DNA of 64,000 nt from Bacteroidota bacterium (GTDB lineage Bacteria > Bacteroidota > Bacteroidia > AKYH767-A > 2013-40CM-41-45). Under the pieces are notes generated by a model. It was not told where the DNA came from and searched no databases. It saw only the letters and a program-made list of their open reading frames with translations. The position numbers and the translations under genes are program-made. Shown here piece after piece: positions 23,675-54,648 of the stretch (the stretch's first letter is position 1; the number at the start of each line of letters is the position of its first letter). Where the stretch lies: assembly GCA_043787975.1 (NCBI GenBank), contig JAYVUK010000032.1:2577-66576 (forward strand), given 5' to 3'.

Positions 23675-24509
23675 AAAACTGAAAGACGTGAATTGGAAAA
23701 GAATCTTCCACATCGCAGGCTGGAGTTTAGTGATTGTGTGCTTCTTTATTACCGTAGGGTTCACAGAGAAAAAGCAGCAGGAACTCCTTTGTGGAAAAGT
23801 AACTATCCAAATAAAAAATTCACTCAACCTTGGTTTTGTCGAAGCGAATGATATCCTTCAGACCATCCATGATAAGTTCGGAATGCTAGAGGGAAAACCG
23901 TTGCATGCTATTAACATTTCTTTGTTGGAAAATATAATCAACAACAACCCTTTCGTTTCACGAGCCGAAGTATTTTCAACCATTGATGGAAAGCTCAATA
24001 TTGAAGTTGTTCCGCGCAATCCGATTGTACGGATCATGAACAACTCGAATGAAAGTTTTTACATTGACGAAGAGGGAGTATTCATGCCGTTGTCGGAAAA
24101 GTATTCAGCATCAGTGCCGGTTGTGAACGGTTTTATTCCTGATAAAGAGTCATTGCATAAGATCAGGATAGTAGAAGATAAAGAAGTGAACGATACATCT
24201 TTTCATCCGCGTACGATTGAAAAAGTTTACATGCTTGCTGATTACATAAGGCGTCATGAGTTCTGGAATGCGCAGGTCGAACAGGTGTTTGTGAATGAAG
24301 AAGGAGATTTGGAACTGATTCCGCGGGTGGGAAATCACACCATTGTTTTGGGAGACCTGGGTGGCGGACAGGGATATGAAAGGGAGATGGATGAAAAATT
24401 TAATAAGCTTTTCCTGTTTTACAAAGAAGGATTGAGTAAGCAGGGTTGGGACAAATACAACACGATCAATTTAAAATATAAAGATCAAATCGTCTGCACA
24501 AAAAAATAG
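23667..24509 (+). CDS. ftsQ: cell division protein FtsQ (POTRA domain)
   Basis: Position in the cluster, one N-terminal transmembrane segment, and POTRA-like domain. Confidence 0.75.
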   Translation: MFKKLKDVNWKRIFHIAGWSLVIVCFFITVGFTEKKQQELLCGKVTIQIKNSLNLGFVEANDILQTIHDKFGMLEGKPLHAINISLLENIINNNPFVSRAEVFSTIDGKLNIEVVPRNPIVRIMNNSNESFYIDEEGVFMPLSEKYSASVPVVNGFIPDKESLHKIRIVEDKEVNDTSFHPRTIEKVYMLADYIRRHEFWNAQVEQVFVNEEGDLELIPRVGNHTIVLGDLGGGQGYEREMDEKFNKLFLFYKEGLSKQGWDKYNTINLKYKDQIVCTKK

Positions 24510-28201: not shown

Positions 28202-28759
28202 TTATCTTTTGTATCCGATCTTCTTTCGTTCTTCCCATTTTACTTGAGCGGCTTTTTCATCCAGCAAATTTTCTAGTGCTTCATAAAGCTGCGCAATATT
28301 TACATCGTGGCTTCCAATTCTCTTTTTTATTTCCAGCAATTGTTTTTTAAGGTCATGACGGCTTAATGCGATTCGCCGTATTTCCACAAAAGCCCTCATG
28401 ATGGAAATGTTCATTTGGACGGCTTTACCGGAATTTAAAACTCCGCTCAACATAGCCACGCCTTGTTCGGTAAAAGCATACGGCAAATATTTGTCAGTGC
28501 GGTTTTGAGGTATTTCCATCATCACAATTTGTGATGATGAACTTTTCTTAATCATTTCAACCTGTTGCCTGATACTTTGAAATTCGAGGGGCTTGAGTTG
28601 AAACATAAAGTCATCAGGGAAGCGTTCGGCGTTGCGCTTGACAGCTTGATTCAAAACCCTTGTTTCGACTTCGTAGAGAATTGCTAAATCAAAATCGAGC
28701 ATGACCCGCTCCCCTCTTAATTCGTATATCCTGCTTTGGATACTTTTAATGATACGCAT
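28202..28759 (-). CDS. ORF6N domain protein (KilA-N-like DNA-binding domain; phage/conjugative-element associated family)
   Basis: The N-terminus (IYELRGERVMLDFDLAILYEVETRVLNQAVKRNAERFPDDFMFQL) matches the ORF6N family. Confidence 0.65.
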   Translation of the reverse strand: MRIIKSIQSRIYELRGERVMLDFDLAILYEVETRVLNQAVKRNAERFPDDFMFQLKPLEFQSIRQQVEMIKKSSSSQIVMMEIPQNRTDKYLPYAFTEQGVAMLSGVLNSGKAVQMNISIMRAFVEIRRIALSRHDLKKQLLEIKKRIGSHDVNIAQLYEALENLLDEKAAQVKWEERKKIGYKR

Positions 28760-29380: not shown

Positions 29381-29520
29381 GATGAATCTCGTTTTTCGAA
29401 AGTCGCGCCAAAGGCGGACGAATCGAAAAACTTAGATTCATCAATCCCGATAGCGTAGCGTATCCGGATCTGTTAACACCTTTCTTAATTTATAATTTAT
29501 AATTTAAAATTTAGAATTTC

Positions 29521-29958
29521 TCAAGTGTGCTCATGCGTCCTCATAAACGCATCCGCAGAAAATTTTCCGGACCCGAAAATGAGAAAGAAGATTAGCAGAG
29601 CAAGCACTAAGATGGATAGTCCCAACTCGGAGTGAATCGTGAAGAATCCTTTGTCGGCATTCACAAAAACAATCGCTCCTGCCAGAATTGGAATCTGAAA
29701 CAGAATAGCAAATCGGGTAAGCAGTCCGATGATGATCAGAAAACCTCCCATCAAATGAGCCAGCGCAACATAATGCGCGAGGAAAACAGCATAGATTGAA
29801 AAGGCGCTGTGCGCAATCATGTTGTAAATAGCGTCTGTGTTTTGAATAAAGATGACTCCTTTAAAGAAGATAATCATTCCGAGAATTATTCTCAGAACCG
29901 GAAACCACTTCGTTTGGTGAAGGTCACCCCACGTTTCTATTTTTTGGATGGTATTCAT
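29521..29958 (-). CDS. DoxX family membrane protein
   Basis: Four transmembrane segments with a DoxX-like pattern. Confidence 0.7.
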   Translation of the reverse strand: MNTIQKIETWGDLHQTKWFPVLRIILGMIIFFKGVIFIQNTDAIYNMIAHSAFSIYAVFLAHYVALAHLMGGFLIIIGLLTRFAILFQIPILAGAIVFVNADKGFFTIHSELGLSILVLALLIFFLIFGSGKFSADAFMRTHEHT

Positions 29959-30159
29959 GACAGTTAGTTTTAGAGGTTAGACATGAATTGTTCTTACAAA
30001 GTTTACGATATTTTTTTTGCAATTCCAATTCCGGCTTGTTGAATAAGTTGTTTGTAACCGCTTTCAAGCTGCTTTTCATCGCATCATTTCTTTTCTACTT
30101 TGCATCCACACGCTGACGATATTTCTTCGCTATAGAAAATTCGTTTTTAAACCAATCGC

Positions 30160-31644
30160 ATGAATCAGAACTCAACAGGCAAATCATCGCTGCCAATTCT
30201 TATCTCCGTATTTTTCTTTTGGGGATTTGTGGCAGCCAGCAACGACATTCTTATTCCTGTCTTTAAGGAGAAATTAAATCTTGAACAATGGCAAAGCCAG
30301 CTGATTTCTGTCGCCTTTTATGTTGCTTACACAGTTGGATCACTCATTTATTTTTTGGTTTCAAAAATCAATGGTGGTGATATTCTGAACAGAATAGGCT
30401 ACAAAAATGGAATTGCTTTCGGACTGATCTTTTCTGCCCTCGGCACGTTGTTGTTTTATCCTGCTGCCATGACTTCTTCTTTTGGTTTGATGATAAGCGG
30501 GTTGTTTATAGTCGGACTTGGATTTTCTCTTCAGCAAACTGCCGCTAATCCGCTTGCAATAAATATCGGTGATTCTAAAAAAGGTGCGCAGCGATTAAGT
30601 TTAGCCGGAGGTATCAATAACATCGGAACTACGATAGGACCTGTCATTGTTAGTCTTGCAATCTTTGGCTCGCTAAAGGCCGGAGCCAAACTGGAGAATC
30701 TTGAATCGGTGAAAACTCCTTACATGATTTTAGGTGCAGCATTTGTAATTGTTGCATTGATTTTCAAATTCTCATCTCTTCCGAATAAAATTCATCATGA
30801 GGAAGAACAAGCTGATTCAAAGAAAATTTCTTCTGCAAGAAAAAGTGCGCTCAACTATCCTCAACTGTGGCTCGGAATGATAGGCATTTTTGTTTATGTT
30901 GGAGTTGAAGTGTCAACAGCATCTAATCTTCCTGAGTTTATGCGGCAACATCTGAATACTCCAACCAACGAAGTTGCACCATACGTTTCTCTTTTCTGGG
31001 CCAGTTTGATGATCGGAAGATGGTCGGGCGCAGTAGGAGCATTTGATCTGAAAGCAGGAACAAAACAAATGTTACGTTTCTTTTTGCCTTACGCCGCTTT
31101 CGCTGTTTTCTTATTTGTAAATTTTCTTGCCAACCATGATTTGCAACCATTCTACTTGTATTTCTTTGTCATCATTGCAATCATCATCGCAGATATATTA
31201 AGTAAAGGAAACCCGGCTCGTCAGCTGATGATTTTTTCCATGCTGGGAATTACTTCTCTCATCATTGGAATCCTTTCGGATGGAATGGTCAGCGTGTATG
31301 CATTTATCAGTGTCGGATTGTTTTGCTCTACGTTGTGGCCTTGCATCTTCACCCTTGCCATTGCCGGATTGGGAAAACATACCAACGACGGATCAAGTTT
31401 TTTAATCATGATGATTATGGGAGGCGGATTAATCAGCTGGCTCCAGGGATTTCTTGCAAAAGATTCCCTGCTTGGCATACAGTGGAGCTATCTTACCGGT
31501 GTTGCATGTTTCGCATATCTTGCTTTTTATGGATGGCGTGTTAAGCAGATTTTGAAATTGCAAGGGATTGATTATGATGAACCGAAAATTTCTTTGCTTT
31601 CCCATGAAAGTGAAAAAGCAGGAATCTTACAAAGTGAAATATAA
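30160..31644 (+). CDS. MFS sugar permease, FHS family (fucose/glucose/galactose:H+ symporter-like)
   Basis: 12-TM MFS protein whose N-terminus resembles FucP/GluP. Confidence 0.75.
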   Translation: MNQNSTGKSSLPILISVFFFWGFVAASNDILIPVFKEKLNLEQWQSQLISVAFYVAYTVGSLIYFLVSKINGGDILNRIGYKNGIAFGLIFSALGTLLFYPAAMTSSFGLMISGLFIVGLGFSLQQTAANPLAINIGDSKKGAQRLSLAGGINNIGTTIGPVIVSLAIFGSLKAGAKLENLESVKTPYMILGAAFVIVALIFKFSSLPNKIHHEEEQADSKKISSARKSALNYPQLWLGMIGIFVYVGVEVSTASNLPEFMRQHLNTPTNEVAPYVSLFWASLMIGRWSGAVGAFDLKAGTKQMLRFFLPYAAFAVFLFVNFLANHDLQPFYLYFFVIIAIIIADILSKGNPARQLMIFSMLGITSLIIGILSDGMVSVYAFISVGLFCSTLWPCIFTLAIAGLGKHTNDGSSFLIMMIMGGGLISWLQGFLAKDSLLGIQWSYLTGVACFAYLAFYGWRVKQILKLQGIDYDEPKISLLSHESEKAGILQSEI

Positions 31645-31716
31645 ACTTCATCAGATCAACTTTTTATTTTGGATTTGATTTGTTAATCTTTGCTGCCAAT
31701 ACATTCCTTTAAGGAT

Positions 31717-32517
31717 ATGAAATTTCCGGTTCTCGCTTTCTTCTTATTGCTTCATGCTTGCTTGTTTGCACAGACCGGTGAAAACAAACCGGAGCAAAAA
31801 AAAGGCAAAGGCACATTCTATTTCATCTGGGGTTATAATAAGGACTGGTTTTCTAAAAGTGATTTACATTTTGTAGATCACATTACCGATAATTATGATT
31901 TCACTTTGTACGGAGTGAAAGCAGATGATCGCATCGGGCTCTCCAAAATTTTTAACAATGATATTTCTATTCCGCAATATGTTTATCGCTTCGGCTATTA
32001 TTTCAATGACAAACATAATCTGGGTATTGAACTGAATTTTGATCATGCAAAATACATCATGATTCAGGATCAACGTGTTCATATAAAGGGAAACATTCAT
32101 GGAGAAACGATGGACAAGGACACCATCCTTCAACCGGACTTTCTAAAGTTTGAACATACCAACGGTGCAAATTTTATGATGGTGAACTTATTGAAGCGGA
32201 CAAAATTTTTTCAAAGCAAAAATCAGAAGCATGTATTGAACTATGTTTTAAAACCCGGAGTCGGAATCGTTATTCCGAAAACTGATGTTACACTTTTTGG
32301 AACACGCAGAGATAACGTGTTTCACATCGCCGGATATATCATGGGACTTGATGGAGAATTGAGATATGAATTCGGAAAGCACTTATTTGCTGAGACAGGG
32401 TTCAAAGGTTGCTTTGCCAATTATACCAATGTACTGACCCTCGGAGAGGCAAGAGCAAACCATCACTTTTTTTCTCTTGAGTTTCTTTTCGCTGCAGGAT
32501 ATGCAATTCCCTGGTAA
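31717..32517 (+). CDS. hypothetical outer-membrane/secreted protein (signal peptide, beta-rich)
   Basis: Signal peptide MKFPVLAFFLLLHACLFAQ. I recognise no catalytic motif. Confidence 0.45.
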   Translation: MKFPVLAFFLLLHACLFAQTGENKPEQKKGKGTFYFIWGYNKDWFSKSDLHFVDHITDNYDFTLYGVKADDRIGLSKIFNNDISIPQYVYRFGYYFNDKHNLGIELNFDHAKYIMIQDQRVHIKGNIHGETMDKDTILQPDFLKFEHTNGANFMMVNLLKRTKFFQSKNQKHVLNYVLKPGVGIVIPKTDVTLFGTRRDNVFHIAGYIMGLDGELRYEFGKHLFAETGFKGCFANYTNVLTLGEARANHHFFSLEFLFAAGYAIPW

Positions 32518-32582
32518 TGGAAAAGTGATATTTTATCCTTTTCTTAGTAGAGAAATAAATGTAACAAATTTATATTTATCGA

Positions 32583-34877
32583 ATGAGAATATATTTCCTG
32601 TTAACTGTTTACTGTCTTCTGTTTACTGCTGTTTTTGCGCAGCAGGTTGATACGAACATTGATCTCGAAAAATTTTCCGTCATTCCCAAACCTGGCTCTG
32701 TTATTTTCCTGGAAGGAATATTTTCTATCTCTTCAGAAACTACGATTTCTGTTGACGGGAATGAAACAAAATCGGACGCAGAAGTTTTTAATGCATCACT
32801 CGAAAAAATTTGTGGACTCAAACTGAGAATCGTTCAGGGAGACGCTCCGATGAGAAGTCCGATTGTGCTGATCAATACAACATCAGCCGCTTTCAAAAAG
32901 GATTCTTATAAACTCACAGTCTTTCAAAATAAAATTTCAATCATTGGAAAAGATGCTGGAGTATTTTATGGGCTGCAAACCTTGTTGCAATTGATTCAGC
33001 AAAAGGAAAATTCAATCCAGGTTCCGTGTGTAATGATCTCTGATGAACCTCGGTTTTCCTGGAGAGGAATGCATCTTGATGTATGTCGGCACTTTTTTCC
33101 GAAAGAGTTTATTGAGAAATACATTGACATGATCGCGCTATATAAAATGAATACATTTCACTGGCATCTTACCGAAGACCAGGGCTGGAGAATCGAGATA
33201 AAAAAATATCCGAAACTCACGGAAGTCGGTGCGTGGCGAAACGGTTCGATGATTGGCGCATACAGCGCGCAACAGTTTGATACGGTTCGTTATGGAAGAT
33301 TTTATTCGCAGGATGACATAAAGGAAATTGTTGCATATGCAACCAAACGCCACATTACAGTAGTTCCTGAAATTGAAATGCCCGGACATTCGCTTGCTGC
33401 GCTTGCTTCCTATCCTGAACTCGCGTGCACGAGCGGACCGTTTGAAGTGGCAAAAGCATGGGGCGTTTTTGATGATGTGTATTGCCCAAAGGAAGAGACA
33501 TTTAAGTTTCTTGAAAACGTATTGAGTGAAGTATGCGAATTATTTCCGGGAAAATCCATTCACATTGGTGGTGATGAATGCCCCAAAGTGCGGTGGAAAA
33601 ATTGCAAGCATTGCAAAGCGTTGATGAAAAAATTAAAACTGAAGGATGAGAACCAACTGCAAAGTTATTTCATCAGGCGCATGGAAAAATTTCTGAATAA
33701 AAAAGGAAAACAGATAATTGGTTGGGATGAAATTCTCGAAGGTGGACTTGCTCGAGGCGCTACGGTGATGAGCTGGCGCGGCACAGATGGCGGTATTGCT
33801 GCTGCAAAGAAACATCACAAGGTAGTGATGACTCCGGGTGCGTATTGCTATTTTGATCATTACCAGGGAAGCCCGCAATATGAACCGCTTGCCATTGGTG
33901 GTTACACAACAGTTGAAAAAGTCTATTCCTATGAACCGATTCCTGCTGTGCTGGATTCATCCGAACAAAAATATATTCTCGGTGCGCAGGGAAATGTATG
34001 GACGGAATATATTCTTACGCCTCAGCATGTAGAATACATGGCTGTGCCTCGCATGTGTGCGCTTGCTGAAGTTTTGTGGAGTCCGAAAGAGCAAAAGGAT
34101 TATCCTGATTTTCAGAACAGGTTGCTGAAACATTTTTCGTTGCTCGATAGACTGAATATAAATTATTCAAAAGCGATCTATGAACTAAAAACTTCAGTGA
34201 AACCGTTGGTCGAAAAAAACGGAGTTTCATTCGAACTGTCGTCTCCGTTTACAAACGGAAAAATATGTTATACAACAGATGGGACTGATCCGAAAATTAA
34301 TTCAGCAGTTTATTCTTCAGCAATTCCTGTTATTAAAAGTAGCACGTTGAAAGCTGCATATTTCGAAGGCGAAAAGAAAAAAGGAAATGTTCTCGAACAG
34401 ATTTTTTTTGTGACGAAGTCCACGGGAAAAGAAGTGACGCTTGAAACTCCTCCGAATGAAAAATATTTTTGTAACGGAGCACAATCCCTGGTTGACGGTA
34501 TCAAAGGAGGTTTACACAAACACGGACAAAATTGGCTGGGTTGGTGGGGACCTGATATCGTTGCAACGATTGATCTCGGAGAAAGGAAATCTTTCTCAAA
34601 AATTTCTTTCGATGTATTCGATGATGAACCCGCCTGGATATATCTTCCTAAAAGTATTGAAGTTTTAATTTCCGATGACGGGATTAATTTTACGACCTTG
34701 ACTAAAATTTCAGGTGACGAGATAAAAGGAATGAATGAAGTTGTTGAGAAAAATTTCGGAGAGCAGTCATCTCGTTATATAAAAGTGATTGCAAAGAATC
34801 CCGGAAGAATTCCTGATGGTAAACAAGGATCAGGAAATAATTCATGGTTGTTTGTGGATGAAATTTCGGTTGAATAG
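32583..34877 (+). CDS. beta-N-acetylhexosaminidase (GH20) with C-terminal chitobiase-C-like and discoidin-like domains
   Basis: GH20 catalytic region (HIGGDE, GWDE). Signal peptide. Confidence 0.9.
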   Translation: MRIYFLLTVYCLLFTAVFAQQVDTNIDLEKFSVIPKPGSVIFLEGIFSISSETTISVDGNETKSDAEVFNASLEKICGLKLRIVQGDAPMRSPIVLINTTSAAFKKDSYKLTVFQNKISIIGKDAGVFYGLQTLLQLIQQKENSIQVPCVMISDEPRFSWRGMHLDVCRHFFPKEFIEKYIDMIALYKMNTFHWHLTEDQGWRIEIKKYPKLTEVGAWRNGSMIGAYSAQQFDTVRYGRFYSQDDIKEIVAYATKRHITVVPEIEMPGHSLAALASYPELACTSGPFEVAKAWGVFDDVYCPKEETFKFLENVLSEVCELFPGKSIHIGGDECPKVRWKNCKHCKALMKKLKLKDENQLQSYFIRRMEKFLNKKGKQIIGWDEILEGGLARGATVMSWRGTDGGIAAAKKHHKVVMTPGAYCYFDHYQGSPQYEPLAIGGYTTVEKVYSYEPIPAVLDSSEQKYILGAQGNVWTEYILTPQHVEYMAVPRMCALAEVLWSPKEQKDYPDFQNRLLKHFSLLDRLNINYSKAIYELKTSVKPLVEKNGVSFELSSPFTNGKICYTTDGTDPKINSAVYSSAIPVIKSSTLKAAYFEGEKKKGNVLEQIFFVTKSTGKEVTLETPPNEKYFCNGAQSLVDGIKGGLHKHGQNWLGWWGPDIVATIDLGERKSFSKISFDVFDDEPAWIYLPKSIEVLISDDGINFTTLTKISGDEIKGMNEVVEKNFGEQSSRYIKVIAKNPGRIPDGKQGSGNNSWLFVDEISVE

Positions 34878-34963
34878 CCCACAACTTTTAGCCCACGACT
34901 TCAGTCGTGGGAAAATAAATGATGGATCAAAAAATCGTTTCAAGGATTTATAAATTTGAATAA

Positions 34964-35941
34964 ATGGCAACACGAAGAGTTTTTATCAAATGGTCTGCGT
35001 TGAGCGCAGCCCTTTTATCGGTCAACAGATCCAACGCAAAGAAAATTTCCATTCCATCATCAGCAACAAAGCCGATTGTGATTTCGACATGGAAGCATGG
35101 ACAGGAAGCAAATGTGGATGCCTGGAAAATTCTTTCCTCCGGTGGACGCGCATTGGATGCGGTAGAAAAAGGTGTGATGAATACGGAGGAGAATTTACGA
35201 AACCTCAGTGTCGGGCTCGGTGGCTTGCCCGACCGCGATGGTCACGTAACATTGGATGCATGCATCATGGATGAACTTGCTAACTGCGGTTCGGTGGCTT
35301 TTCTTGAACACATCAAGCATCCCATTTCCGTGGCGCGGATGGTGATGGAAAAAACTCCGCATGTGATGCTCGTTGGAGAAGGTGCGTTGAAGTTCGCTTT
35401 GGATAATGGTTTCAAGAAGGAAAAATTTGATCGTACTCCGGAATCCGATAAGGCCTGGAAGGAATGGTTGAAAAAAGCAGAATACAAACCCATCGTCAAT
35501 TTTGAAAATCACGATACGATTGGAATGGTTGCCCTGGATGCTGCAGGAAATCTTTCAGGAGCTTGCACCACCAGCGGCATGGCATATAAACTTCATGGCC
35601 GTGTCGGGGATTCGCCGATTATCGGTGCGGGATTGTATGTCGACAATGAAGTGGGAGCAGCAACGGCTACAGGAACAGGAGAGGAAGTGATTCGCATTTG
35701 TGGAACTCACTTGGTTGTCGAGTTGATGCGACAGGGGAAATCTCCGGAAGATGCTTGCCGCGAAGCGGTCGAGCGAATTGTAAAAAAGCAACCAACGAAA
35801 TCAAAGGAGTTACAGGTTGGTTTTCTTGCATTGAATAAGAACGGTGAATACGGCGCATATTGTCTACAAACCGGATTCAACTATGCTGTGTATTCTGAGA
35901 AAATGAAGAACGAATTGATTGATGGAAAGAGTTACTATTAG
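34964..35941 (+). CDS. N4-(beta-N-acetylglucosaminyl)-L-asparaginase (glycosylasparaginase, Ntn hydrolase)
   Basis: Asparaginase-2 family with autoproteolytic site HDTIGMVALD and GAGLYVD. RR-containing N-terminal signal. Confidence 0.88.
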   Translation: MATRRVFIKWSALSAALLSVNRSNAKKISIPSSATKPIVISTWKHGQEANVDAWKILSSGGRALDAVEKGVMNTEENLRNLSVGLGGLPDRDGHVTLDACIMDELANCGSVAFLEHIKHPISVARMVMEKTPHVMLVGEGALKFALDNGFKKEKFDRTPESDKAWKEWLKKAEYKPIVNFENHDTIGMVALDAAGNLSGACTTSGMAYKLHGRVGDSPIIGAGLYVDNEVGAATATGTGEEVIRICGTHLVVELMRQGKSPEDACREAVERIVKKQPTKSKELQVGFLALNKNGEYGAYCLQTGFNYAVYSEKMKNELIDGKSYY

Positions 35942-36056
35942 ATTTGAGATAGGTGATGTGAGACATGAGATATACACTTCGCTTATTCGTAAAGTCGTTT
36001 TAAATCCGTAATTCGATAGAGGAATTTTAAAGAGTCTCTTTTAATAAACCTAAGCC

Positions 36057-36731
36057 TTGTCAAAAATTAAAATTGAAATTGCCTGTTTTAATTTGGAGTC
36101 AGCATTGACTGCTGCAAATGCCGGCGCTGATCGCATCGAACTTTGTGAGGACTATTCATTGGGGGGAATAACCCCTTCAGAAGAAATAATTATTGAGGCG
36201 CGAAAAAAAATTTCTGTTCCAATCTATGTGATGATTCGTCCGAGAGGTGGAGACTTCGTATACACGGAAAGTGAACTTGAATTGATGAAAGCGCAGGTAA
36301 TTTTTTGCAGAGAGAAAAGGATGGATGGAGTTGTTTTCGGAATCTTGGATAAGCAAAATAATATTGACAAATTCAGATGCAAAGAACTTGTGAATCTTTC
36401 AAAACGAATGCCGATAACATTTCATCGCGCATTTGATCAGGCACAGAATTCATTTCGGGCGCTTGAAGATATTATTGATTGTGGATTTTCGCGAATTCTA
36501 ACCAGTGGAAGAGAAGCGTCAGCAACAGACGGGGCTATGTTGATTTCACAACTTGTTGAAAAAGCAGGCAACAGGATAATCATTATGCCCGGAGGCGGTG
36601 TAAGAAGTGAGAATATTTCTGAACTGATTAAAACAAAAGCAAAAGAATTTCATTCAGCAGCCATCAATAAAACCACGTTGCAAATTGATGAGACTGAAAT
36701 CAGGACAATGAAATTGATATTGTCGAAATGA
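36057..36731 (+). CDS. cutC: CutC family protein (copper homeostasis protein CutC fold)
   Basis: Collinear with E. coli CutC (ADRIELC, RPRGGDF, FHRAFD). A TTG start is inferred. Confidence 0.8.
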   Translation: MSKIKIEIACFNLESALTAANAGADRIELCEDYSLGGITPSEEIIIEARKKISVPIYVMIRPRGGDFVYTESELELMKAQVIFCREKRMDGVVFGILDKQNNIDKFRCKELVNLSKRMPITFHRAFDQAQNSFRALEDIIDCGFSRILTSGREASATDGAMLISQLVEKAGNRIIIMPGGGVRSENISELIKTKAKEFHSAAINKTTLQIDETEIRTMKLILSK

Positions 36732-39313
36732 AAAAAATATGGGTGATATTTTTTCTTTTTGTGTTTGGAAAAGCAAATGCTACATCAGTCACATCGTCAT
36801 TAGATAATTCTTCCTGGCAATTCAGAAAATCCGGTGACTCAAGATGGTTTCCTGCAACTGTCCCGGGAACCGTTCACACCGATCTACTCAACAATAAAAT
36901 CATTGACGATCCTTATTATGGAGACAATGAAAAAAAAATGCAATGGATTGATACCTGTAATTGGGAGTATCAAACATTTTTTGACTGCGATAAAAATGTC
37001 CTGGGCAACAGACATATAGAATTGCAGTTTGACGGATTGGATACCTATGCAAAAATTTTTCTGAATGATTCATTGATTCTTTCAGCTGATAATATGTTTC
37101 GCACCTGGAAGGTTGATTGCAAAAAATACTTAAAGGAAAAAGGGAATCATTTGCTGGTTCAATTTGAATCAGCAGTTGTAAAAGGAAAATCATTGACAAA
37201 GAAATTATCTTACGCATTGCCTGGTGATGAAAAGGTTTTTACACGAAAGGCAGCATATCAATACGGCTGGGATTGGGGACCGCGATTTGTTACGTGTGGT
37301 ATCTGGAGAAATGTAGAATTGATTGGGTGGAATGATGCAACGATTGAGAGCATACAGATCATTCAAAATTTTCTCAGCGATTCAGTGGCAAATATTACAG
37401 CGCGAATTGAAGTGAATGCCGACAAAACAACTGTATTAAATTTTTTCTTACAAATATCTTCAGGCAAGGAAATGAAAGTGATAAAATCACAGGAATTGTC
37501 GCAAGAAAAAAATTTTGTAGACATACCATTCACCATTTCAAATCCAAAACGATGGTGGTCCAATGGTCTGGGTGAACCCTATTTGTATCAGTATGTTTTT
37601 TCAATTGCGAATGGAGAAAATAGGCTGGATGAGCGGAAGATTTCATTTGGGTTGAGAACGATTGAACTGGTTCGCCAAAAAGATTCCATCGGGAAAAGTT
37701 TTTATTTCAAGCTGAATGGAATTCCTGTTTTTATGAAAGGAGCGAATTACATTCCACCGGATAACTTTCTTCCGCGCGTCACAATTGAGAGGTACAAGGA
37801 AATTATTCAGTCGGCTGTTGATGCAAACATGAACATGCTTCGTGTGTGGGGTGGTGGTGTGTATGAAGATGACAAGTATTACAATCTCTGTGACGAAAAG
37901 GGAATTCTTGTTTGGCAGGATTTGATGTTTGCCTGCGCGATGTATCCTGGTGACTCCTTATTTATTGAAAATGTTAAACAGGAAGTCACTGATAATGTTA
38001 AACGATTGCGCAATCATCCTTGTATCGCTTTGTGGTGTGGTAACAATGAGATCGATGAAGGATGGAAAAATTGGGGATGGCAGCAGCAGTACCAATATTC
38101 GGAAAAAGATTCTGCGAAGATCTGGGGCGATTATCAAAAATTATTTCAGGTGCTAATTCCTTCTCTTCTGGATACACTTCTTTTGTCACCGATTCACCGA
38201 TTCACCGATTCGTCTGAACCGGGGAACCAAAGAATGGGAGAATCGGTGAATGTTACTTATATCTCGACATCTCCGTTGATTGGTTGGGGTCACAAGGAAA
38301 GTTTGCAGCAAGGTGATTCACATTATTGGGGTGTATGGTGGGGAATGGAACCATTTGATTTTTACAAAAAGAAAGTCGGAAGATTTATGAGCGAATATGG
38401 TTTCCAGGGAATGCCTTCATTAACTGTATTTAAAAAAATCTCAGATGAGTATGATTGGACATTTGAGTCTCCTGTTGTAAAAAATCATCAGAAGCATCCG
38501 ACAGGTTATGAAACAATTCAAAAATATTTGGAGAAAAGCTACATACAGCCTATTGGTTTTGAAAATTACATTTACGTTTCTCAGCTTCTTCAGGCGGAAG
38601 GAATCAAAACTGCCATCGAAGCGCATCGAATCGCCAAACCAACTTGTATGGGCACCTTGTACTGGCAACTGAATGATTGTTGGCCTGTCACATCATGGAG
38701 CAGCACCGACTATTATGGAAACTGGAAGGCGCTTCACTATTTTGTAAAGAAGGCGTATGAAAAATATCTCATCACTGCTGAAATCGAAAATGAAAATTTA
38801 ATTGTCAATGTTGCTTCTGATGATATATCGAATATTAAAGTGAAGGGTAAATTTCAGTTGATTGATTTCGACGGAAATGTTCTTTGGAAGAATTCAGTTG
38901 ATATTTTCTTGACATACAATAAAAGTGAAAAGATATATTCTATTTCTTTAACAAAACTTCTAAAAACTGTTTCGCAATCCGGAGTATTCTTCAAAATGGA
39001 AATTGAAAAAAATAAGAAACAATTGGCTGAAAATATTTTTTACTTTGTTGATCCTAAAGAATTGCCCCTTACAAAGCCCAATATTCAATACACAATCAAG
39101 AATGAAAAGAACGGTACAACCAGTATTACACTTTCTTCTGATAAACTCGCTAAAAATGTATTTGTGGATTTTGGAAATACAGAAGCTAAATTGAGTGATA
39201 ATTATTTTGATCTTATTCCCGGAGAACAAAAAGTAATTGAAGTAAAGAATCTCGGAGATGTTCACGAGTTGGAAAAAAAAATAAAAATAAAATCGTTAGT
39301 TGATACATACTGA
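36728..39313 (+). CDS. beta-mannosidase (GH2)
   Basis: GH2 beta-mannosidase N-terminal region (WQFRKSGDSRWFPATVPGTVHTDLL) and catalytic region. Signal peptide. Confidence 0.88.
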   Translation: MKKIWVIFFLFVFGKANATSVTSSLDNSSWQFRKSGDSRWFPATVPGTVHTDLLNNKIIDDPYYGDNEKKMQWIDTCNWEYQTFFDCDKNVLGNRHIELQFDGLDTYAKIFLNDSLILSADNMFRTWKVDCKKYLKEKGNHLLVQFESAVVKGKSLTKKLSYALPGDEKVFTRKAAYQYGWDWGPRFVTCGIWRNVELIGWNDATIESIQIIQNFLSDSVANITARIEVNADKTTVLNFFLQISSGKEMKVIKSQELSQEKNFVDIPFTISNPKRWWSNGLGEPYLYQYVFSIANGENRLDERKISFGLRTIELVRQKDSIGKSFYFKLNGIPVFMKGANYIPPDNFLPRVTIERYKEIIQSAVDANMNMLRVWGGGVYEDDKYYNLCDEKGILVWQDLMFACAMYPGDSLFIENVKQEVTDNVKRLRNHPCIALWCGNNEIDEGWKNWGWQQQYQYSEKDSAKIWGDYQKLFQVLIPSLLDTLLLSPIHRFTDSSEPGNQRMGESVNVTYISTSPLIGWGHKESLQQGDSHYWGVWWGMEPFDFYKKKVGRFMSEYGFQGMPSLTVFKKISDEYDWTFESPVVKNHQKHPTGYETIQKYLEKSYIQPIGFENYIYVSQLLQAEGIKTAIEAHRIAKPTCMGTLYWQLNDCWPVTSWSSTDYYGNWKALHYFVKKAYEKYLITAEIENENLIVNVASDDISNIKVKGKFQLIDFDGNVLWKNSVDIFLTYNKSEKIYSISLTKLLKTVSQSGVFFKMEIEKNKKQLAENIFYFVDPKELPLTKPNIQYTIKNEKNGTTSITLSSDKLAKNVFVDFGNTEAKLSDNYFDLIPGEQKVIEVKNLGDVHELEKKIKIKSLVDTY

Positions 39314-39314
39314 A

Positions 39315-42233
39315 ATGAAAAACATAAATCCAAAATTTTATCTTGTTTCTTGCTTCTTATTTCTTGCTTCATTCTCCAATGCACAGGTTGATTACGCAAA
39401 GTATGTGGATCCATTCATCGGTACCGGCGGACACGGACACACATATCCCGGAGCGACTGTTCCATTTGGAATGGTTCAGCTTTCTCCTGATACACGGATT
39501 GATGGAAGTTGGGATGGTTGCAGCGGCTATCATTACACCGATTCTGTGATCTATGGTTTTTCGCATACTCATCTCAGCGGAACAGGTTGCTCGGATTACG
39601 GTGATATCATGATGATGCCGATGATGGGCGAACCATCACTTGATCGTAAAATATATTCTTCTCAATTTTCTCATGCTGATGAATCGGCTTCAGCCGGATA
39701 TTATTCCGTAAAGCTAAAGCGTGACAATATTTTTGTTGAACTTACTTCGACTGAGCGCGTTGGAATGCATCGCTATACTTTTCCGGTAGAAGGAAATGTA
39801 TCTGTTGTCCTTGATCTGACCCATCGTGATAAATTATTGCAGGGAAGAATTCATCGTGTAAGTCCGACAACATTTGAAGGACTGAGGAGATCGGAAGCAT
39901 GGGCGAAAGACCAATTGGTTTTCTATCGGATTGAATTTTCAAAACCTGTTGTTGACGCAAACATCGAATCGGAAAACGGAAGCGATAAAAAAGCATGGTT
40001 TAAATTCAACATGAAGAAGAATGAAAAATTGTTGGTGAAAGTTGCATTGTCATCCGTAAGTGAAGTAGGCGCAAATAAAAACATGAAAGCAGAGCTTCCT
40101 GATTGGGATTTTGAAAAAGTAAAAAAAGAAGCGCATGATGCATGGCAAAAGGAGCTAAATAAAATTGAAGTAAGCGGAGGTGAAGAAGAGCAGACGAAAA
40201 TATTTTATACGGCTTTGTATCATTGTTTTCTTCAGCCGAATATTTACAATGATGTGGACGGGCAATACCGTGGACGTGATTCGAAGATTCACAAAGCAGA
40301 AGGATTTAATTATTACACGGTGTTTTCGCTGTGGGATACATTTCGCGCATGGCATCCACTCATGACTATCATCGACCGAAAGCGAACACTTGATTTTATC
40401 AAAACTTTTCTTGCTCAATATGAACAAGGCGGTTTGTTGCCGGTATGGGAATTGTCTTCCAACGAAACAGAATGTATGATCGGCTATCATGCTGTTTCCG
40501 TAATCGCGGACGCTGCTGTAAAAGGAATTACCGGTTTCGATATGGAAGAAGCTTTTCAGGCCATGAAGAAGAGCGCAATGTTGGGCGACCGGTATGGATT
40601 GGGAAAATATATGGAGCATGGATGTTTAAGTGTCGAAGATGAAAACGAGTCGGTTTCAAAAACGCTTGAGTATGCGTACGATGATTGGTGTATTGCGCAA
40701 ATGGCTAAACTATTGAATCATGAAAAGGATTATCAATATTTCATGGAACGTTCTCAATCCTGGAAAAATTTATTTGATCCTGAAACCGGTTTTATCAGAC
40801 CTAGAAAAAATGGTGGCTGGATGAAACCGTTTGATCCGTTCGAAGTGAACAACAATTATACGGAAGCAAATGCATGGCAGTACACATTTTTTGTTCCGCA
40901 GGAGATTCAATCGCTGATTGAAATGAGTGGAGGCAATGACAAGTTTGAAAAAAAATTAGATGAACTGTTTACCGTGGAAAGTAAAACTACCGGACGCGAT
41001 CAATCAGACATTACGGGGATGATTGGTCAATATGCCCATGGCAATGAACCAAGTCATCACATGGCTTATTTATATAACTATGTTGGCAAGCCATGGAAAA
41101 CACAGGAACGTGTTCATCAAATTCTGACAGACTTTTATCATGCAGCTCCTGACGGGTTAATTGGCAACGAAGATTGTGGACAAATGAGCGCGTGGTATGT
41201 AATGAGCGCAATGGGTTTGTACCAGGTTTGTCCTTCGTTTGATGCGTATGATATCGGAACGCCGATATTTAAAGAAGTGAAAATTCATCTTGAAAATAAA
41301 AAGGAGATATTTTTAAACAGTTTAAATTATTCTGACAAAAGTATCTACGCATACGCTGTAAAAATTAATGACAACTTATCAACTCAATATTCAGTTTCCT
41401 ATCACGATTTAGTACAAGGAGCAAGTATTTCTTTTGACACGCGGGAAAAATTCAGAGAAGGTAAATTGATTATTAGCAATTCATACATCAATACATCGGA
41501 TATGAATAAGGAGATTGTCGAATCGCCTTTGATAAGTTCAACATCGGCATCATTTAAAGGGAAGTGTGAAGTAAAAATTAATTCATACGGTAAAAAGAAT
41601 TCGAAACTGTTTTTTACAACAGATGGAAATCTGCCCAATCTTCAATCTTCACTTTACCAATCTCCAATTACTGTCGATACGACAACTACGATCAAGGCGA
41701 TTGCAGTCAATGACCATGGTGAATTAAGTAAAGTTTCGACCGCTCATTTTTATAAAATGCCGCATCCGGATTGGAAAATAAAAATTTTCTCAAAATATAA
41801 TCGGCAATACACAGCCGGTGGTGATGAAGGATTGATCGATGGTATTCTGGGTGAAATAAATTGGCAAAAGGGAGGTTGGCAAGGTTATCAATCGCAAGAT
41901 TTTGAATGTGTGATTGATCTTGGAAGTGAAAAGGAAATTTCACAATGCAGCGTTGATGTTTTGCAGGATACAAGGTCATGGATTCTATTCCCTACCCAAA
42001 TTGAATTTTCTTTTTCAACAGATTCAGCTCGCTTTCCTGCTCCAAAAATTGTAACGAATGCAATTGCTGCCAACGATTATAATCCGCAATTACAGGAATT
42101 CATATCCACACTTCCGAAACAAAAAGTCCGTTTCGTAAAAATCAAAGCGATCAATTACGGTAAGCTTCCCGAATGGCATCTTGGAGCAGGAGGCGATGCA
42201 TTTATTTTTGTAGATGAGATAACAATTGAGTAG
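39315..42233 (+). CDS. alpha-1,2-mannosidase (GH92) with C-terminal chitobiase-C-like and discoidin-like domains
   Basis: GH92 N-terminal signature YVDPFIGTGGHGHTYPGATVPFGMVQLSPDT. Signal peptide. Confidence 0.9.
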   Translation: MKNINPKFYLVSCFLFLASFSNAQVDYAKYVDPFIGTGGHGHTYPGATVPFGMVQLSPDTRIDGSWDGCSGYHYTDSVIYGFSHTHLSGTGCSDYGDIMMMPMMGEPSLDRKIYSSQFSHADESASAGYYSVKLKRDNIFVELTSTERVGMHRYTFPVEGNVSVVLDLTHRDKLLQGRIHRVSPTTFEGLRRSEAWAKDQLVFYRIEFSKPVVDANIESENGSDKKAWFKFNMKKNEKLLVKVALSSVSEVGANKNMKAELPDWDFEKVKKEAHDAWQKELNKIEVSGGEEEQTKIFYTALYHCFLQPNIYNDVDGQYRGRDSKIHKAEGFNYYTVFSLWDTFRAWHPLMTIIDRKRTLDFIKTFLAQYEQGGLLPVWELSSNETECMIGYHAVSVIADAAVKGITGFDMEEAFQAMKKSAMLGDRYGLGKYMEHGCLSVEDENESVSKTLEYAYDDWCIAQMAKLLNHEKDYQYFMERSQSWKNLFDPETGFIRPRKNGGWMKPFDPFEVNNNYTEANAWQYTFFVPQEIQSLIEMSGGNDKFEKKLDELFTVESKTTGRDQSDITGMIGQYAHGNEPSHHMAYLYNYVGKPWKTQERVHQILTDFYHAAPDGLIGNEDCGQMSAWYVMSAMGLYQVCPSFDAYDIGTPIFKEVKIHLENKKEIFLNSLNYSDKSIYAYAVKINDNLSTQYSVSYHDLVQGASISFDTREKFREGKLIISNSYINTSDMNKEIVESPLISSTSASFKGKCEVKINSYGKKNSKLFFTTDGNLPNLQSSLYQSPITVDTTTTIKAIAVNDHGELSKVSTAHFYKMPHPDWKIKIFSKYNRQYTAGGDEGLIDGILGEINWQKGGWQGYQSQDFECVIDLGSEKEISQCSVDVLQDTRSWILFPTQIEFSFSTDSARFPAPKIVTNAIAANDYNPQLQEFISTLPKQKVRFVKIKAINYGKLPEWHLGAGGDAFIFVDEITIE

Positions 42234-42238
42234 TACGG

Positions 42239-43789
42239 TTAGTGTGCATCCACAGGAACCGCTGATCCTTTTTTGAACCGTTGTAAAAATAACAGCGGAA
42301 TACAGAGAATAAAAAACATTCCTGTAAACCAAAAACCATCCATATAGCTTAGTAAAAAAGTTTGCTTCAATACAGCACCTTCAATTGCTTTGTATGCAAG
42401 CGTGGTTGCATCAACGGCTGCATACCCTTTCGCAATAAAATTATTGAATAAACTATTAAAGCGCGAAACAAAATCAGGATTGTATTGATTTATATTTTCA
42501 AGAAGAATGGAACGGTGATATCCCTGTCGAAGATGAATCAAGGTGGTGATCAAAGCAATGCCAAACGAACCACCGAGTTGACGCATCATGTTATTCAATC
42601 CTGTTGCCTGCGATAAATCTTTTGGTTGAACATCACTGAATGCAAGAGAAGTAAGCGGAACAAACAAAAGACTCAACCCGATTCCGCGAAGTATCAGGGG
42701 GAAATAAAAATTACTTTCTCCCGAACTAAGGTTTGATTTTCCAAGTGTATACGTAAAAAGAAAAAAGAAAAAGAAGCCGAGTGATGCTAATATCTGAGGT
42801 GGAATTTTATTCTGCAACATTCTTCCCACGAGCGGCATCATCAGGATGGTTGCAAGACCTCCGGGAATAAGCAGTTCACCGGTTTGCTGCGCAGTGAAGC
42901 CAAGAAGATTCTGACAGAAGATCGGGAAAATAAAAACGGAAGCAAACAATCCGAATCCAAGAATGAAGGTGGTGAACATACCAATTGCAAGAGAACGATT
43001 TTTCATGATTCGAAGATTCACGACCGGGTGTTCAGTGTACAATTCATGAAGAATAAATCCAACCATGCTAATCGCTGTAACAATTGCAAGTATGGTGATG
43101 TAAGTCGTGTTAAACCAATCTTCAGTTTCTCCCTTTTCAAGGATGACTTGCAACGAACCGATTCCGACAGTGAGCAGAATAATTCCAAGCCAATCCACAT
43201 GGTCGCTTTGATGATGCGCATGAATGGAATCTTTAATAAAGTTAAGCGTAAGGAGAACGGCAATGATTCCAAGAGGAATGTTGATGAAGAATATCCATGG
43301 CCACGTCCAATGATCGGTAATCACGCCACCGAGTGTAGGGCCAAATGTCGGACCGACAACTACACCAAGTCCGAACAAAGCCATCGCAGTTCCAAGTTGT
43401 TTCTTAGGCCACGATTCAATGAGAATTGCTTGCGCAGTGGAAAGCAATCCACCGCCACCAATACCTTGAATGAAACGAAAAATAATCAGTTCCCAGATCG
43501 TATGTGCGTTTCCACAGAAGAAGGATGCAATGGTAAAGAGTACAATGGAAGCAGTAAAATAATTCCTTCTGCCGTAACGATTGCTCAGCCAGCCGCTCAT
43601 TGGAAGGATGATCACGTTTGCAACAGCATAAGAAGTGATTACCCAACCAACATCTTCAAGCGTCGCTCCGAGATTTCCCATAATCTGTGGCAACGATACA
43701 TTCACCACCGTCGTATCGATCAATTCGAGCAGCGCAGCAAGAATAACTGTAAAGGTGATGATGAATTTTCGGAATCCTGTTTCTACCAT
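42239..43789 (-). CDS. emrB: MFS multidrug efflux transporter, DHA2 (EmrB/QacA) family, 14 TM
   Basis: EmrB-family N-terminus and motif A (GWLSNRYGRR). Confidence 0.88.
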   Translation of the reverse strand: MVETGFRKFIITFTVILAALLELIDTTVVNVSLPQIMGNLGATLEDVGWVITSYAVANVIILPMSGWLSNRYGRRNYFTASIVLFTIASFFCGNAHTIWELIIFRFIQGIGGGGLLSTAQAILIESWPKKQLGTAMALFGLGVVVGPTFGPTLGGVITDHWTWPWIFFINIPLGIIAVLLTLNFIKDSIHAHHQSDHVDWLGIILLTVGIGSLQVILEKGETEDWFNTTYITILAIVTAISMVGFILHELYTEHPVVNLRIMKNRSLAIGMFTTFILGFGLFASVFIFPIFCQNLLGFTAQQTGELLIPGGLATILMMPLVGRMLQNKIPPQILASLGFFFFFLFTYTLGKSNLSSGESNFYFPLILRGIGLSLLFVPLTSLAFSDVQPKDLSQATGLNNMMRQLGGSFGIALITTLIHLRQGYHRSILLENINQYNPDFVSRFNSLFNNFIAKGYAAVDATTLAYKAIEGAVLKQTFLLSYMDGFWFTGMFFILCIPLLFLQRFKKGSAVPVDAH

Positions 43790-46314: not shown

Positions 46315-46929
46315 TTATTTTTTAATGAGTAAATGATTTTTTAATAATTCGCGAAGGTGTTTCTTCACGCGCGTTTTATTTTTTTCATCAAAGATTGAAT
46401 TCGTTTCAGGATTCAGGTTGATCATTTTACAGGCCAGCATGGATGATTTGGTCACCTGAGAAATGGTTCCGATCATCGACGCAATCGTACATTCAATGTC
46501 TACTTTCCTGAATATTTTTTTTCGCTGGCCTTCTTCAATCATCTTCCGCATTTCATTCACGTTACGAAGCATGATTTCAGCTATCACATCATGCATTCCT
46601 GAACGTTGCTGCAAAGCAATTTCACGTTGCAGAATCCTGTGAAAACGATGGTTGTCAAAAATTTTATCCACGTAGAGGTCAATGAGTTTTTCAATTTTCG
46701 TCAGCGGATCCAATTCTTTTTCGTTCAGTGAACGTAGCTTCTCATGCGTGCTGCCTGCCCGGTATTCCACCAATGCTTTGAATAATTTCTCTTTGGAGCC
46801 AAAATAATAGGAGACCATCGCGATATTGATGCGTGCCTTTTTTGCAAGCATTCTCACCGATGTGCCTTCGAAACCGTGCTCCGCAAAAAGAGTCTCGGCC
46901 ACTTCCAATATCTGTTCTTTCTTTTCCAT
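46315..46929 (-). CDS. TetR/AcrR family transcriptional regulator
   Basis: TetR helix-turn-helix (HTH) (GFEGTSVRMLAKKARINIAMVSYYFGSKEKLF). The start is taken at MEKKEQ. Confidence 0.85.
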   Translation of the reverse strand: MEKKEQILEVAETLFAEHGFEGTSVRMLAKKARINIAMVSYYFGSKEKLFKALVEYRAGSTHEKLRSLNEKELDPLTKIEKLIDLYVDKIFDNHRFHRILQREIALQQRSGMHDVIAEIMLRNVNEMRKMIEEGQRKKIFRKVDIECTIASMIGTISQVTKSSMLACKMINLNPETNSIFDEKNKTRVKKHLRELLKNHLLIKK

Positions 46930-46952
46930 TATTTTTTTAATCGGGGACAAAG

Positions 46953-46985
46953 TTAAACAAGTGTTTAAATTAAACAAACGTTTAA
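46953..46985. promoter_or_regulatory. two tandem palindromic operator-like sites TTAAAC-N4-GTTTAA (46953-46968, 46970-46985) upstream of tetR
   Basis: Seen directly, 24-56 bp upstream of the tetR start. TetR-family repressors typically bind such palindromes. Confidence 0.55.
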
Positions 46986-54506: not shown

Positions 54507-54648
54507 GGCGCAAAGATAAATTTAATTGGCTGGCTTGACAAGATGTCAGTTTCAGAGATTTTAAATTAGAAATTTTAGATTTTAAATGGTAATTGTTGAA
54601 TTTTGGTTTAAGCTATTTTTTTATTTTCACCCCGTTAAATCGTTTTCT

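Follow-up and report, generated by a model that had tools for sequence, protein, structure and literature searches.

In Bacteroides thetaiotaomicron, high-mannose N-glycans are degraded by a polysaccharide utilization locus (PUL) that combines BT3987, a surface endo-beta-N-acetylglucosaminidase (ENGase) of glycoside hydrolase family 18 (GH18), with a SusC/SusD pair and with three GH92 exo-mannosidases for alpha-1,2, alpha-1,3 and alpha-1,6 linkages, which trim the glycan core (PMC10154615, PMC11180146). Clusters of carbohydrate-active enzymes (CAZymes) without Sus genes also exist, and are co-regulated with PULs located elsewhere (Crouch et al., PMC9522356). In Xanthomonas campestris and Xanthomonas citri, the exported GH20, GH2 and GH92 enzymes of the nix cluster act sequentially on N-glycans (PMC4173781), and in Lactobacillus casei the alf-2 system consumes the linkage region, N-acetylglucosamine bound to asparagine (GlcNAc-Asn), by means of a glycosylasparaginase (AGA), a permease of the major facilitator superfamily (MFS) and a sugar kinase (PMC6960285). 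Here, we analyze a run of seven genes, including those for GH20, AGA, GH2 and GH92, at positions 30160-42233 of a 64,000-nucleotide stretch of contig JAYVUK010000032.1 from a Bacteroidota bacterium (hereafter, the window). We suggest, with a probability of about 0.68, that the genes form an operon conserved in Bacteroidota and responsible for the final, exo-acting stage of N-glycan and glycoasparagine catabolism, that is, a downstream "finishing" module rather than a self-contained PUL.

Protein families were assigned by Pfam and NCBIfam profile scans, and the best matches to solved structures were obtained by sequence searches of the PDB. Statements about what is absent from the window cover open reading frames (ORFs) of at least 120 amino acids (aa) within these 64 kb of a 75-kb contig only. 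The seven co-directional ORFs named in a first-pass annotation of the sequence were confirmed, all on the + strand, and the profile scans agreed with the families given there. The intergenic gaps are in order 72, 65, 86 and 115 nucleotides (nt); the genes for CutC and GH2 then overlap by 4 nt, and those for GH2 and GH92 either overlap by 14 nt or, if GH92 begins at ATG 39315, as it may, are separated by 1 nt. The spacing of the seven genes is operon-like. The same DNA is present in a second assembly (Logan SRR23617268, L001) with genes called independently; the gene set there is identical, and ATG 31717 is again chosen as the start of ORF2, where it is the likeliest one, the reading frame of which opens at TTG 31690. 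The features of the locus are as follows:

29959..30159, + strand, presumed operon promoter region, intergenic between the divergent DoxX gene and the MFS gene
30160..31644, + strand, MFS permease, predicted fucose:H+ symporter (FHS) type, inner membrane (Pfam MFS_1, NCBIfam gluP)
31717..32517, + strand, ORF2, predicted small outer-membrane beta-barrel with signal peptide, 266 aa (AlphaFold2 model; no family)
32583..34877, + strand, GH20 beta-N-acetylhexosaminidase, putatively periplasmic with Sec signal (Pfam; PDB match BT0459)
34964..35941, + strand, glycosylasparaginase (AGA), N4-(beta-N-acetylglucosaminyl)-L-asparaginase, Ntn hydrolase, with twin-arginine leader (Pfam Asparaginase_2; PDB)
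36057..36731, + strand, CutC-family TIM-barrel protein, putatively cytoplasmic, no leader (Pfam CutC)
36728..39313, + strand, GH2 beta-mannosidase, BtMan2A-like, putatively periplasmic (Pfam; PDB 2je8)
39300..42233 (likely start ATG 39315), + strand, GH92 exo-alpha-mannosidase, BT3130 / alpha-1,3 clade, putatively periplasmic (Pfam; PDB)

The profile scans placed none of the four hydrolases in a family unrelated to that originally proposed, and the catalytic motifs are kept. For GH20, the scans returned Glyco_hydro_20 (1.8e-123) together with Glyco_hydro_20b, CHB_HEX_C/Fn3_assoc and F5/8-type-C matches, and the HIGGDE motif is present with its D-E pair, the catalytic residues of the family. 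The best PDB match, at full length, was 6q63 (3.5e-192), which is BT0459 (PMC7426924), a broad antennary GlcNAc-ase on N-glycans (PMC10154615). The Asparaginase_2 protein was matched best by the Elizabethkingia (Flavobacterium) glycosylasparaginase (3ljq, 1p4k; E 7e-137, residues 30-314), to which it is ~70% identical, whereas isoaspartyl peptidases and L-asparaginase reached only ~1e-38 to 1e-40 in the PDB search. The autoprocessing site ENHD/TIGM is kept (HDT) and aligns with ENHD(C/T)IGM. On this sequence evidence, the protein is assigned as a genuine glycosylasparaginase (EC 3.5.1.26) rather than an isoaspartyl peptidase. Such enzymes require free alpha-amino and alpha-carboxyl groups on the asparagine, and peptidases, which are not encoded here, must therefore act before AGA. 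The reaction converts GlcNAc-Asn to aspartate and 1-amino-GlcNAc (PMC6960285).

The GH2 protein (Pfam Glyco_hydro_2_N2, Mannosidase_ig and Ig_mannosidase) has BtMan2A as its best PDB match (2je8, 1.1e-208), followed by Xanthomonas Man2A (6byc, 4e-185). Its WCGNNEI and FMSEYGFQ motifs align with WCGNNEI and FMSEFGFQ in BtMan2A, and the glutamates of the NE and SE(Y/F)G motifs are presumably the acid/base and nucleophile, as in BtMan2A and clan GH-A. For GH92, the catalytic domain (Pfam, 1.6e-179), the N-terminal domain and CHB_HEX_C were recognized. The best PDB matches were BT3130 (6f8z, 3e-188), the core alpha-1,3-mannosidase of B. massiliensis (7zgm, 2e-178) and BT3965, as compared to ~1e-111 for the alpha-1,2-specific BT3990 and BT2199 (enzymes compared according to PMC5930347 and PMC9522356). 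In the alignment with BT3130, the Glu of TEANAWQY is matched to E535, the general acid, and the Asp of GNEDCGQ to D637, the base (PMC5930347). The specificity is probably of the alpha-1,3 type, judged by placement in a clade that also holds BT3965, which cleaves alpha-1,4 linkages (PMC5930347).

The C-terminal ~210 residues of GH92 (aa ~800-977) are 29% identical (E 4e-32) to the C-terminus of GH20 (aa ~560-764). The two enzymes thus carry the same accessory module (CHB_HEX_C plus F5/8-type-C-like), which is found in BT0459 (6q63) too and may bind glycans and thereby bring GH20 and GH92 to one and the same substrate.

According to the first-pass annotation, the four activities cover every linkage of a high-mannose N-glycan core. 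This is overstated, as the only GH92 enzyme belongs to the alpha-1,3 clade and there is no alpha-1,6 candidate; therefore, full degradation of high-mannose glycans by the locus alone cannot be shown. The emphasis on the N-glycan core holds, whereas the preference for high-mannose substrates does not. Because BT0459, the nearest characterized relative of the GH20 enzyme, is an antennary GlcNAc-ase, the substrate could equally well be a trimmed complex/hybrid or a paucimannose glycan from plants, insects or fungi.

The N-termini of the proteins were judged by eye and not by a signal-peptide predictor. Leaders of the short, basic-hydrophobic-AxA type, with no convincing lipobox, were seen in ORF2 (MKFPVLAFFLLLHACLFA/Q), GH20 (MRIYFLLTVYCLLFTAVFA/Q), GH2 (MKKIWVIFFLFVFGKANA/T) and GH92 (MKNINPKFYLVSCFLFLASFSNA/Q). 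The AGA leader (MATRRVFIKWSALSAALLSVNRSNA/K; window 34964-35041) contains TRRVFIK and is of the twin-arginine (Tat) type. Thus, leaders were read on all four hydrolases, as had been claimed, and CutC has none. An RR motif was present at the N-terminus in 78/78 AGA homologues from related Bacteroidota loci (L002-L081), which suggests that Tat export is a conserved property of AGA. No C-terminal domain of the type IX secretion system (T9SS) was detected on the hydrolases by the Pfam scan. On the simplest reading of these sequences, the four hydrolases are soluble in the periplasm, ORF2 is in the outer membrane, the MFS transporter is in the inner membrane and CutC stays in the cytoplasm.

The permease was recognized by Pfam MFS_1 (3.9e-20) and scored 203.2 bits with the NCBIfam profile gluP (TIGR01272), above the cut-off of 202.55. 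The scores against fucP (180.8 bits) and NagP (164 bits) were significant but under the equivalog cut-offs. These scores assign the protein to the FHS type (TC 2.A.1.7), in agreement with the initial prediction, and it would probably import released monosaccharide, GlcNAc and/or mannose. Alternatively, the permease could take up intact GlcNAc-Asn or Man-GlcNAc for intracellular degradation, as in L. casei, where the MFS protein AlfH imports fucosyl-GlcNAc-Asn for an intracellular AGA and a subsequent sugar kinase (PMC6960285); the cytoplasmic location of CutC would also fit. However, all four hydrolases carry export leaders, with a conserved twin-arginine signal in AGA, and CutC, the sole cytoplasmic protein of the locus, belongs to neither a glycosidase nor an amidase family. 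Since the permease also scores best with monosaccharide transporters, uptake of the intact conjugates is highly improbable.

Conservation of the cluster was studied in 80 loci from different GTDB species that were fetched with AGA, 73 of which contained enough downstream sequence to count CutC next to AGA, and in a second sample that started from the window CutC (including L169-L171). The core GH20-AGA-CutC-GH2-GH92 recurs across several lineages of Bacteroidota; it is present in five related loci (L171, L170, L083, L021 and L031) and, rearranged, in another (L036). Equal or near-equal gene order in independent genomes indicates that the arrangement is not due to chance. The nearest CutC homologues were found in L171, with the same seven-gene layout, in L170, with MFS...GH20-AGA-CutC-GH2-GH92, and in L169, with CutC-GH2-GH92 and no AGA. 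In 58/73 species loci, CutC follows AGA on the same strand at a distance of no more than 2 kb, with a median gap of 56 bp and a gap below 150 bp in 38 loci. Within 10 kb of AGA, genes for GH20, GH92 and MFS were each present in 13 loci and GH2 in 3, and a ROK kinase was encoded just upstream of AGA in 14 loci. In L083, the orthologous MFS gene is directly followed by a ROK sugar kinase gene. Recurrent extras in 21 related loci were a GH29 alpha-fucosidase, GH109 and a Glucosamine_iso+PIG-L fusion (NagB/PIG-L), each in four loci. Together with the MFS and ROK genes, these extras fit removal of core fucose and catabolism of the N-glycan core and of GlcNAc.

Soil and rhizosphere metagenomes are the source of the related loci, which would also suit an operon mainly for fungal or yeast mannoprotein and chitin-derived oligosaccharides, with N-glycan core degradation as a side activity and AGA for clean-up of the linkage region. 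BT3130, the closest GH92 relative, shows high activity on yeast alpha-mannan (PMC5930347), the original description of BtMan2A concerned mannan-derived beta-mannosides, to judge from a title cited in PMC10154615, and chitobiose is commonly cleaved by GH20 enzymes (PMC7426924). However, the most conserved element, AGA-CutC, makes sense only for Asn-linked GlcNAc, and the accessory GH29 fucosidase of the relatives points to core fucose. Moreover, GH76, GH99 endo-mannanase, GH18 and GH19 chitinase genes were neither present in the window nor recurrent in the relatives. A primarily fungal substrate is thus improbable.

Sequence divergence along the cluster is mosaic. As compared to L171, DoxX, MFS, ORF2 and AGA are 94-97% identical, whereas CutC is 78% and GH2 75% identical; as compared to L083, the values are 87% for AGA, 57% for CutC and 58% for GH2. 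These values suggest that an exchange has affected the CutC-GH2 pair, or else that the pair evolves far more rapidly than the genes around it. In L086 and L089 (JADMIO011070257.1), only MFS-ORF2-GH92 lie between DoxX and the efflux pump, and the flanking genes are 90-91% identical. By this comparison, the 6.7-kb GH20-AGA-CutC-GH2 block (window 32518-39314) is a presence/absence polymorphism. In five Chitinophaga loci (L026, L037, L040, L042 and L059, at ~12-13.7 kb), two exported proteins are encoded between CutC and GH20/GH92. By eye, and unchecked in Pfam, they were labeled as a phosphodiesterase/alkaline-phosphatase-like protein and a member of the endonuclease/exonuclease/phosphatase family. 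Our guess is that the pair processes phosphorylated mannose on N-glycans.

No SusC, SusD or TonB-dependent receptor (Pfam TonB_dep_Rec, Plug and SusD) was found in the window, which contains a single TonB protein (54586-55716). In 21 related loci, such genes did not recur among the 44 large ORFs outside the cluster, and no recurrent SusC/SusD was seen in about 100 related loci. The locus has neither the adjacent susC/susD pair nor the dedicated sensor/regulator by which PULs are defined. It was thus right to describe it as lacking SusC/SusD and as different from the usual PUL. The absence of Sus genes is unremarkable in itself, since CAZyme clusters of this kind have been documented (PMC9522356).

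ORF2, the candidate for a protein of the outer membrane, had no Pfam or NCBIfam match. Its family comprises at least 492 homologues of ~265 aa, all annotated as "hypothetical", with a mean column identity of 52% and the invariant polar motifs DHxKY and EHTNGAN. The AlphaFold2 model (predicted local distance difference test score 86.5) is all-beta, the C-terminal residue is Trp, and the fold neighbors are 8-10-stranded barrels: OmpA, NspA, PagL, OmpW and CarO. A low-stringency Pfam scan of 48 family members gave weak, sporadic OMP_b-brl matches in 4 of them and no assignment to PagL, porin or KdgM. Based on the signal peptide, the modeled fold and the C-terminal aromatic residue, ORF2 is classified as a small outer-membrane beta-barrel similar to OmpA, OmpW and PagL. 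The original call of an outer-membrane protein is therefore upheld in its signal peptide and fold, with the qualification that the small barrel comes from a generic family and is not a demonstrated glycan channel.

ORF2 is found inside the cluster in the closest relatives only (62-94% identity), in three layouts:

Layout 1, MFS-ORF2-GH20-AGA-CutC-GH2-GH92, in the window and L171
Layout 2, MFS-ROK-GH20-AGA-CutC-ORF2-GH2-GH92, in L083, L092 and L093
Layout 3, reduced to MFS-ORF2-GH92, with unchanged chromosomal location, in L086 and L089

The locus could thus be self-sufficient in scavenging, independently of Sus proteins, with ORF2 as a dedicated channel in the outer membrane, hydrolysis in the periplasm and monosaccharide import by the MFS permease. 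A signal peptide with a confident outer-membrane barrel fold and the retention of ORF2 in three layouts are consistent with such a role, and the minimal triad of layout 3 combines the logic of an outer-membrane channel, a periplasmic hydrolase and an inner-membrane symporter. In three loci of another lineage (L106, L125 and L131), members of the ORF2 family are located two genes upstream of an FHS-type MFS gene, the product of which is 45% identical to that of the window. On the other hand, barrels of 8-10 strands are not known to have a pore wide enough for glycans of ~1 kDa. Family members beyond ~64% identity have unrelated neighbors (NadE, COX15 and PorP/SprF, for example), and an ORF2 homologue within 10 kb was found in 0/80 AGA-centered loci of other Bacteroidota species (cut-off 1e-10). 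The conservation pattern of the family is no less compatible with an enzyme or a structural barrel than with a passive pore. Because of the small barrel type and the operon link restricted to the closest relatives, it is unlikely, as judged from the model, that ORF2 replaces SusC for oligosaccharides, and we regard self-sufficient scavenging as unlikely overall. A role in the passage of small solutes is possible, and as a secondary reading the barrel may be a Sus-independent outer-membrane route of this lineage for small mannosides and glycoamino acids.

In L106, L125 and L131 (~9960-16850), the ORF2-family barrel heads a co-directional run and is followed, in order, by a ~785-aa multi-pass membrane protein that by eye is MMPL/RND-like, the FHS-type MFS protein and a ~688-aa membrane protein that by eye is an OPT-family transporter (both labels not checked in Pfam). 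The run contains no glycosidases. A link of the ORF2 family as a whole to glycans was considered and rejected, as 80 metagenome loci show no consistent neighborhood beyond the closest relatives.

For the operon as a finishing module, we infer the following sequence of events, with the genes being co-transcribed. Small N-glycopeptides, glycoasparagines or free core glycans, made by proteases and/or endoglycosidases, would reach the periplasm by an entry route encoded elsewhere, most likely a SusC/D or other TonB-dependent system in the genome; the smallest species could enter by porins, possibly ORF2. GH20 would remove terminal beta-GlcNAc, antennary residues first and the GlcNAc of chitobiose later, GH92 would take off alpha-linked core mannose, probably alpha-1,3, and GH2 would cleave Man-beta-1,4-GlcNAc. 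The Tat-exported AGA would split GlcNAc-Asn, after which the 1-amino-GlcNAc would decay to GlcNAc and ammonia. The FHS-type symporter would import the released monosaccharide, which in relatives may be fed into glycolysis by the ROK kinase and sometimes the NagB/PIG-L fusion. CutC, as a cytoplasmic TIM barrel of the phosphate-binding type, would probably act on a phosphorylated sugar product. The first-pass annotation had proposed scavenging of glycopeptides with monosaccharide import. Periplasmic hydrolysis and import are plausible, given that MFS is followed by ROK in relatives, but a self-contained system is not supported.

Several observations weigh against the finishing-module interpretation. 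The locus encodes no identified entry route through the outer membrane. The proteases, ENGase and peptide:N-glycosidase (PNGase) that would generate the substrates are absent from the window, where no GH18/GH85 or PNGase gene was found. The locus has a single alpha-mannosidase without obvious alpha-1,6 or alpha-1,2 activity, and no GH125, GH38 or GH76 enzyme is present for alpha-1,6-mannose. The signal peptides are by-eye judgments, and the ROK kinase of the relatives is missing from the window. Finally, enzymes of the BtMan2A-type GH2 and BT3130-type GH92 also act on mannans, so that part of the operon could serve for fungal mannoprotein.

CutC, which the first-pass annotation named but did not discuss, is the most consistent partner of AGA among the AGA-centered loci. 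The protein gave a full-length TIM-barrel match to Pfam CutC (PF03932, 1.7e-66), with human CUTC as the best PDB match (3iwp, 1.9e-54). The family name is an unreliable guide to function and the "copper homeostasis" label is doubtful, since the copper-sensitivity phenotype of E. coli cutC has been ascribed to the small RNA MicL, which is encoded within cutC (PMC4102768). Invariant residues include E7, R26, E28, C30, H123, R124, D127, S150-G151, G180 in a conserved glycine loop, R183, E197 and H199, and R61 and R63 are nearly invariant; the pattern looks like that of an enzyme active site. The nearest non-CutC neighbors of the fold include TrpF and HisA. These enzymes rearrange glycosylamines, and 1-amino-GlcNAc, the product of AGA, is itself a glycosylamine. 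The cutC gene is coupled to AGA across Bacteroidota, to GH2 by the 4-nt overlap, which is shared by the window and L169-L171, and to an asparaginase gene in X. citri, where cutC (XAC3091) adjoins XAC3092 and the nix cluster (PMC6718126, PMC5700972). From these couplings we tentatively propose, with some doubt, that CutC catalyzes, in the cytoplasm, a reaction of the sugar-phosphate type in N-glycan core or glycoasparagine catabolism. In the literature searched, CutC was connected with glycosylasparaginase, N-glycans or GH92 only by brief remarks in genome comparisons of Xanthomonas; neither a functional study nor a paper putting forward such a role was found. The idea that CutC is a Tat-export chaperone for AGA was set aside; no evidence supports it, and CutC is paired with GH2-GH92 without AGA as well (L169).

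The operon promoter was presumed to lie at 29959-30159, the only longer stretch of non-coding DNA ahead of the seven genes. A consensus scan of 29400-42600 for sigma-70 promoters and terminators gave counts equal to those of shuffled controls, with no intergenic terminators. None of the seven genes encodes a regulator (hybrid two-component system, extracytoplasmic function sigma/anti-sigma factor or SusR). The nearest regulators are a TetR protein (46315-46977), which goes with the neighboring efflux pump, and a sigma-54 activator (51673-52899). Upstream of the locus are the dcw cell-division cluster (mraZ to ftsZ), YqeY, an ORF6N gene, a cold-shock gene and the divergent DoxX gene, and downstream is a convergent MFS/HlyD/OEP efflux pump with its TetR regulator. 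T9SS genes (PorP/SprF, GldK-like and GldL) at 59.8-63.1 kb mark the organism as a member of Bacteroidota. The nearest genomes by AGA, among the loci fetched with this protein, are uncultivated Bacteroidota / Cytophagales-type metagenome-assembled genomes with at most 75% AGA identity. The tRNA and Rfam scans across the window gave no matches.

Three further genes in the flanks were noted. The ORF6N-domain gene (KilA-N/antirepressor-like; 28202-28759, - strand), which separates YqeY from the cold-shock gene, is missing from the syntenic region in L086 and L171 and thus probably represents a small mobile insertion. A 280-aa ORF (23667-24509, + strand) without Pfam hit occupies the place expected for ftsQ, between murC and ftsA, and a 441-aa ORF (49741-51066, - strand), also without Pfam hit, lies between LptE and SecG.

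If correct, the interpretation as a finishing module means that a compact "linkage-region" module without Sus genes, with a Tat-exported AGA at its center, is widespread among environmental Bacteroidota (Cytophagales, Sphingobacteriales and Chitinophagales), a point on which the gut-centered N-glycan literature says little. The module would allow recovery of carbon and nitrogen, the latter as aspartate and ammonia, from glycoprotein debris in soil. For CutC, which is conserved from bacteria to humans, the synteny supplies a concrete and testable context now that the copper phenotype has gone to MicL. It points to GlcNAc-6-P, Man-6-P, and 1-amino-GlcNAc and its 6-phosphate as candidates, and to Pedobacter and Chitinophaga as hosts.

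The closest structural matches of the window GH2 and GH20 enzymes are encoded by adjacent genes in one B. thetaiotaomicron CAZyme cluster for complex N-glycans; BtMan2A is BT0458, adjacent to BT0459. This cluster (Briliute et al. 2019) reportedly includes a sialidase and a beta-galactosidase for complex antennae. As in the window, Bacteroidota exo-glycosidases without their own SusC/D would act downstream of import, whereas AGA, CutC, MFS and the small outer-membrane barrel are not part of the BT0458/BT0459 cluster, which belongs to a gut and not an environmental lineage. The activities of BT0459, BT0456 and BT0460 have been described (PMC10154615).

The Xanthomonas nix cluster resembles the locus also in that GlcNAc is imported by an FHS-type MFS protein, NagP, that asparaginase and cutC genes adjoin, and that SusD is absent. 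In contrast to the window, which has no TonB-dependent transporter, the Xanthomonas operon is headed by the TonB-dependent NixD and adds GH18, GH29, GH3, GH125 and GH35, so that the overlap is limited to GH20, GH2 and GH92; moreover, NagP is encoded at another locus and AspG is outside the GlcNAc regulon (PMC4173781, PMC6718126, PMC5700972). The high-mannose PUL of B. thetaiotaomicron acts on the same substrate class with its set of GH92 enzymes, surface ENGase and SusC/D pair, whereas in the window a single GH92 is accompanied by neither an ENGase nor SusC/D, but by AGA, GH2 and GH20 for the reducing-end core. The alf-2 system shares AGA and the MFS permease, but it is Gram-positive and wholly intracellular, its permease takes up the glycoamino acid, and it includes a fucosidase and neither mannosidases nor GH20.

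The same four chemical steps are carried out in the mammalian lysosome, where N-glycan catabolism uses AGA, MANBA, HEXA/B and MAN2B1, with the differences that the alpha-mannosidase is of GH38 instead of GH92 and that the compartment is the lysosome instead of the periplasm. We know of no operon, transporter or CutC link for the lysosomal pathway. The window AGA is homologous to the mammalian lysosomal enzyme (match to 1apy), the role of which has been described (PMC5134220). The locus is not a new uptake system and its enzyme families are well known; we place it among the bacterial N-glycan catabolic clusters, a class already described.

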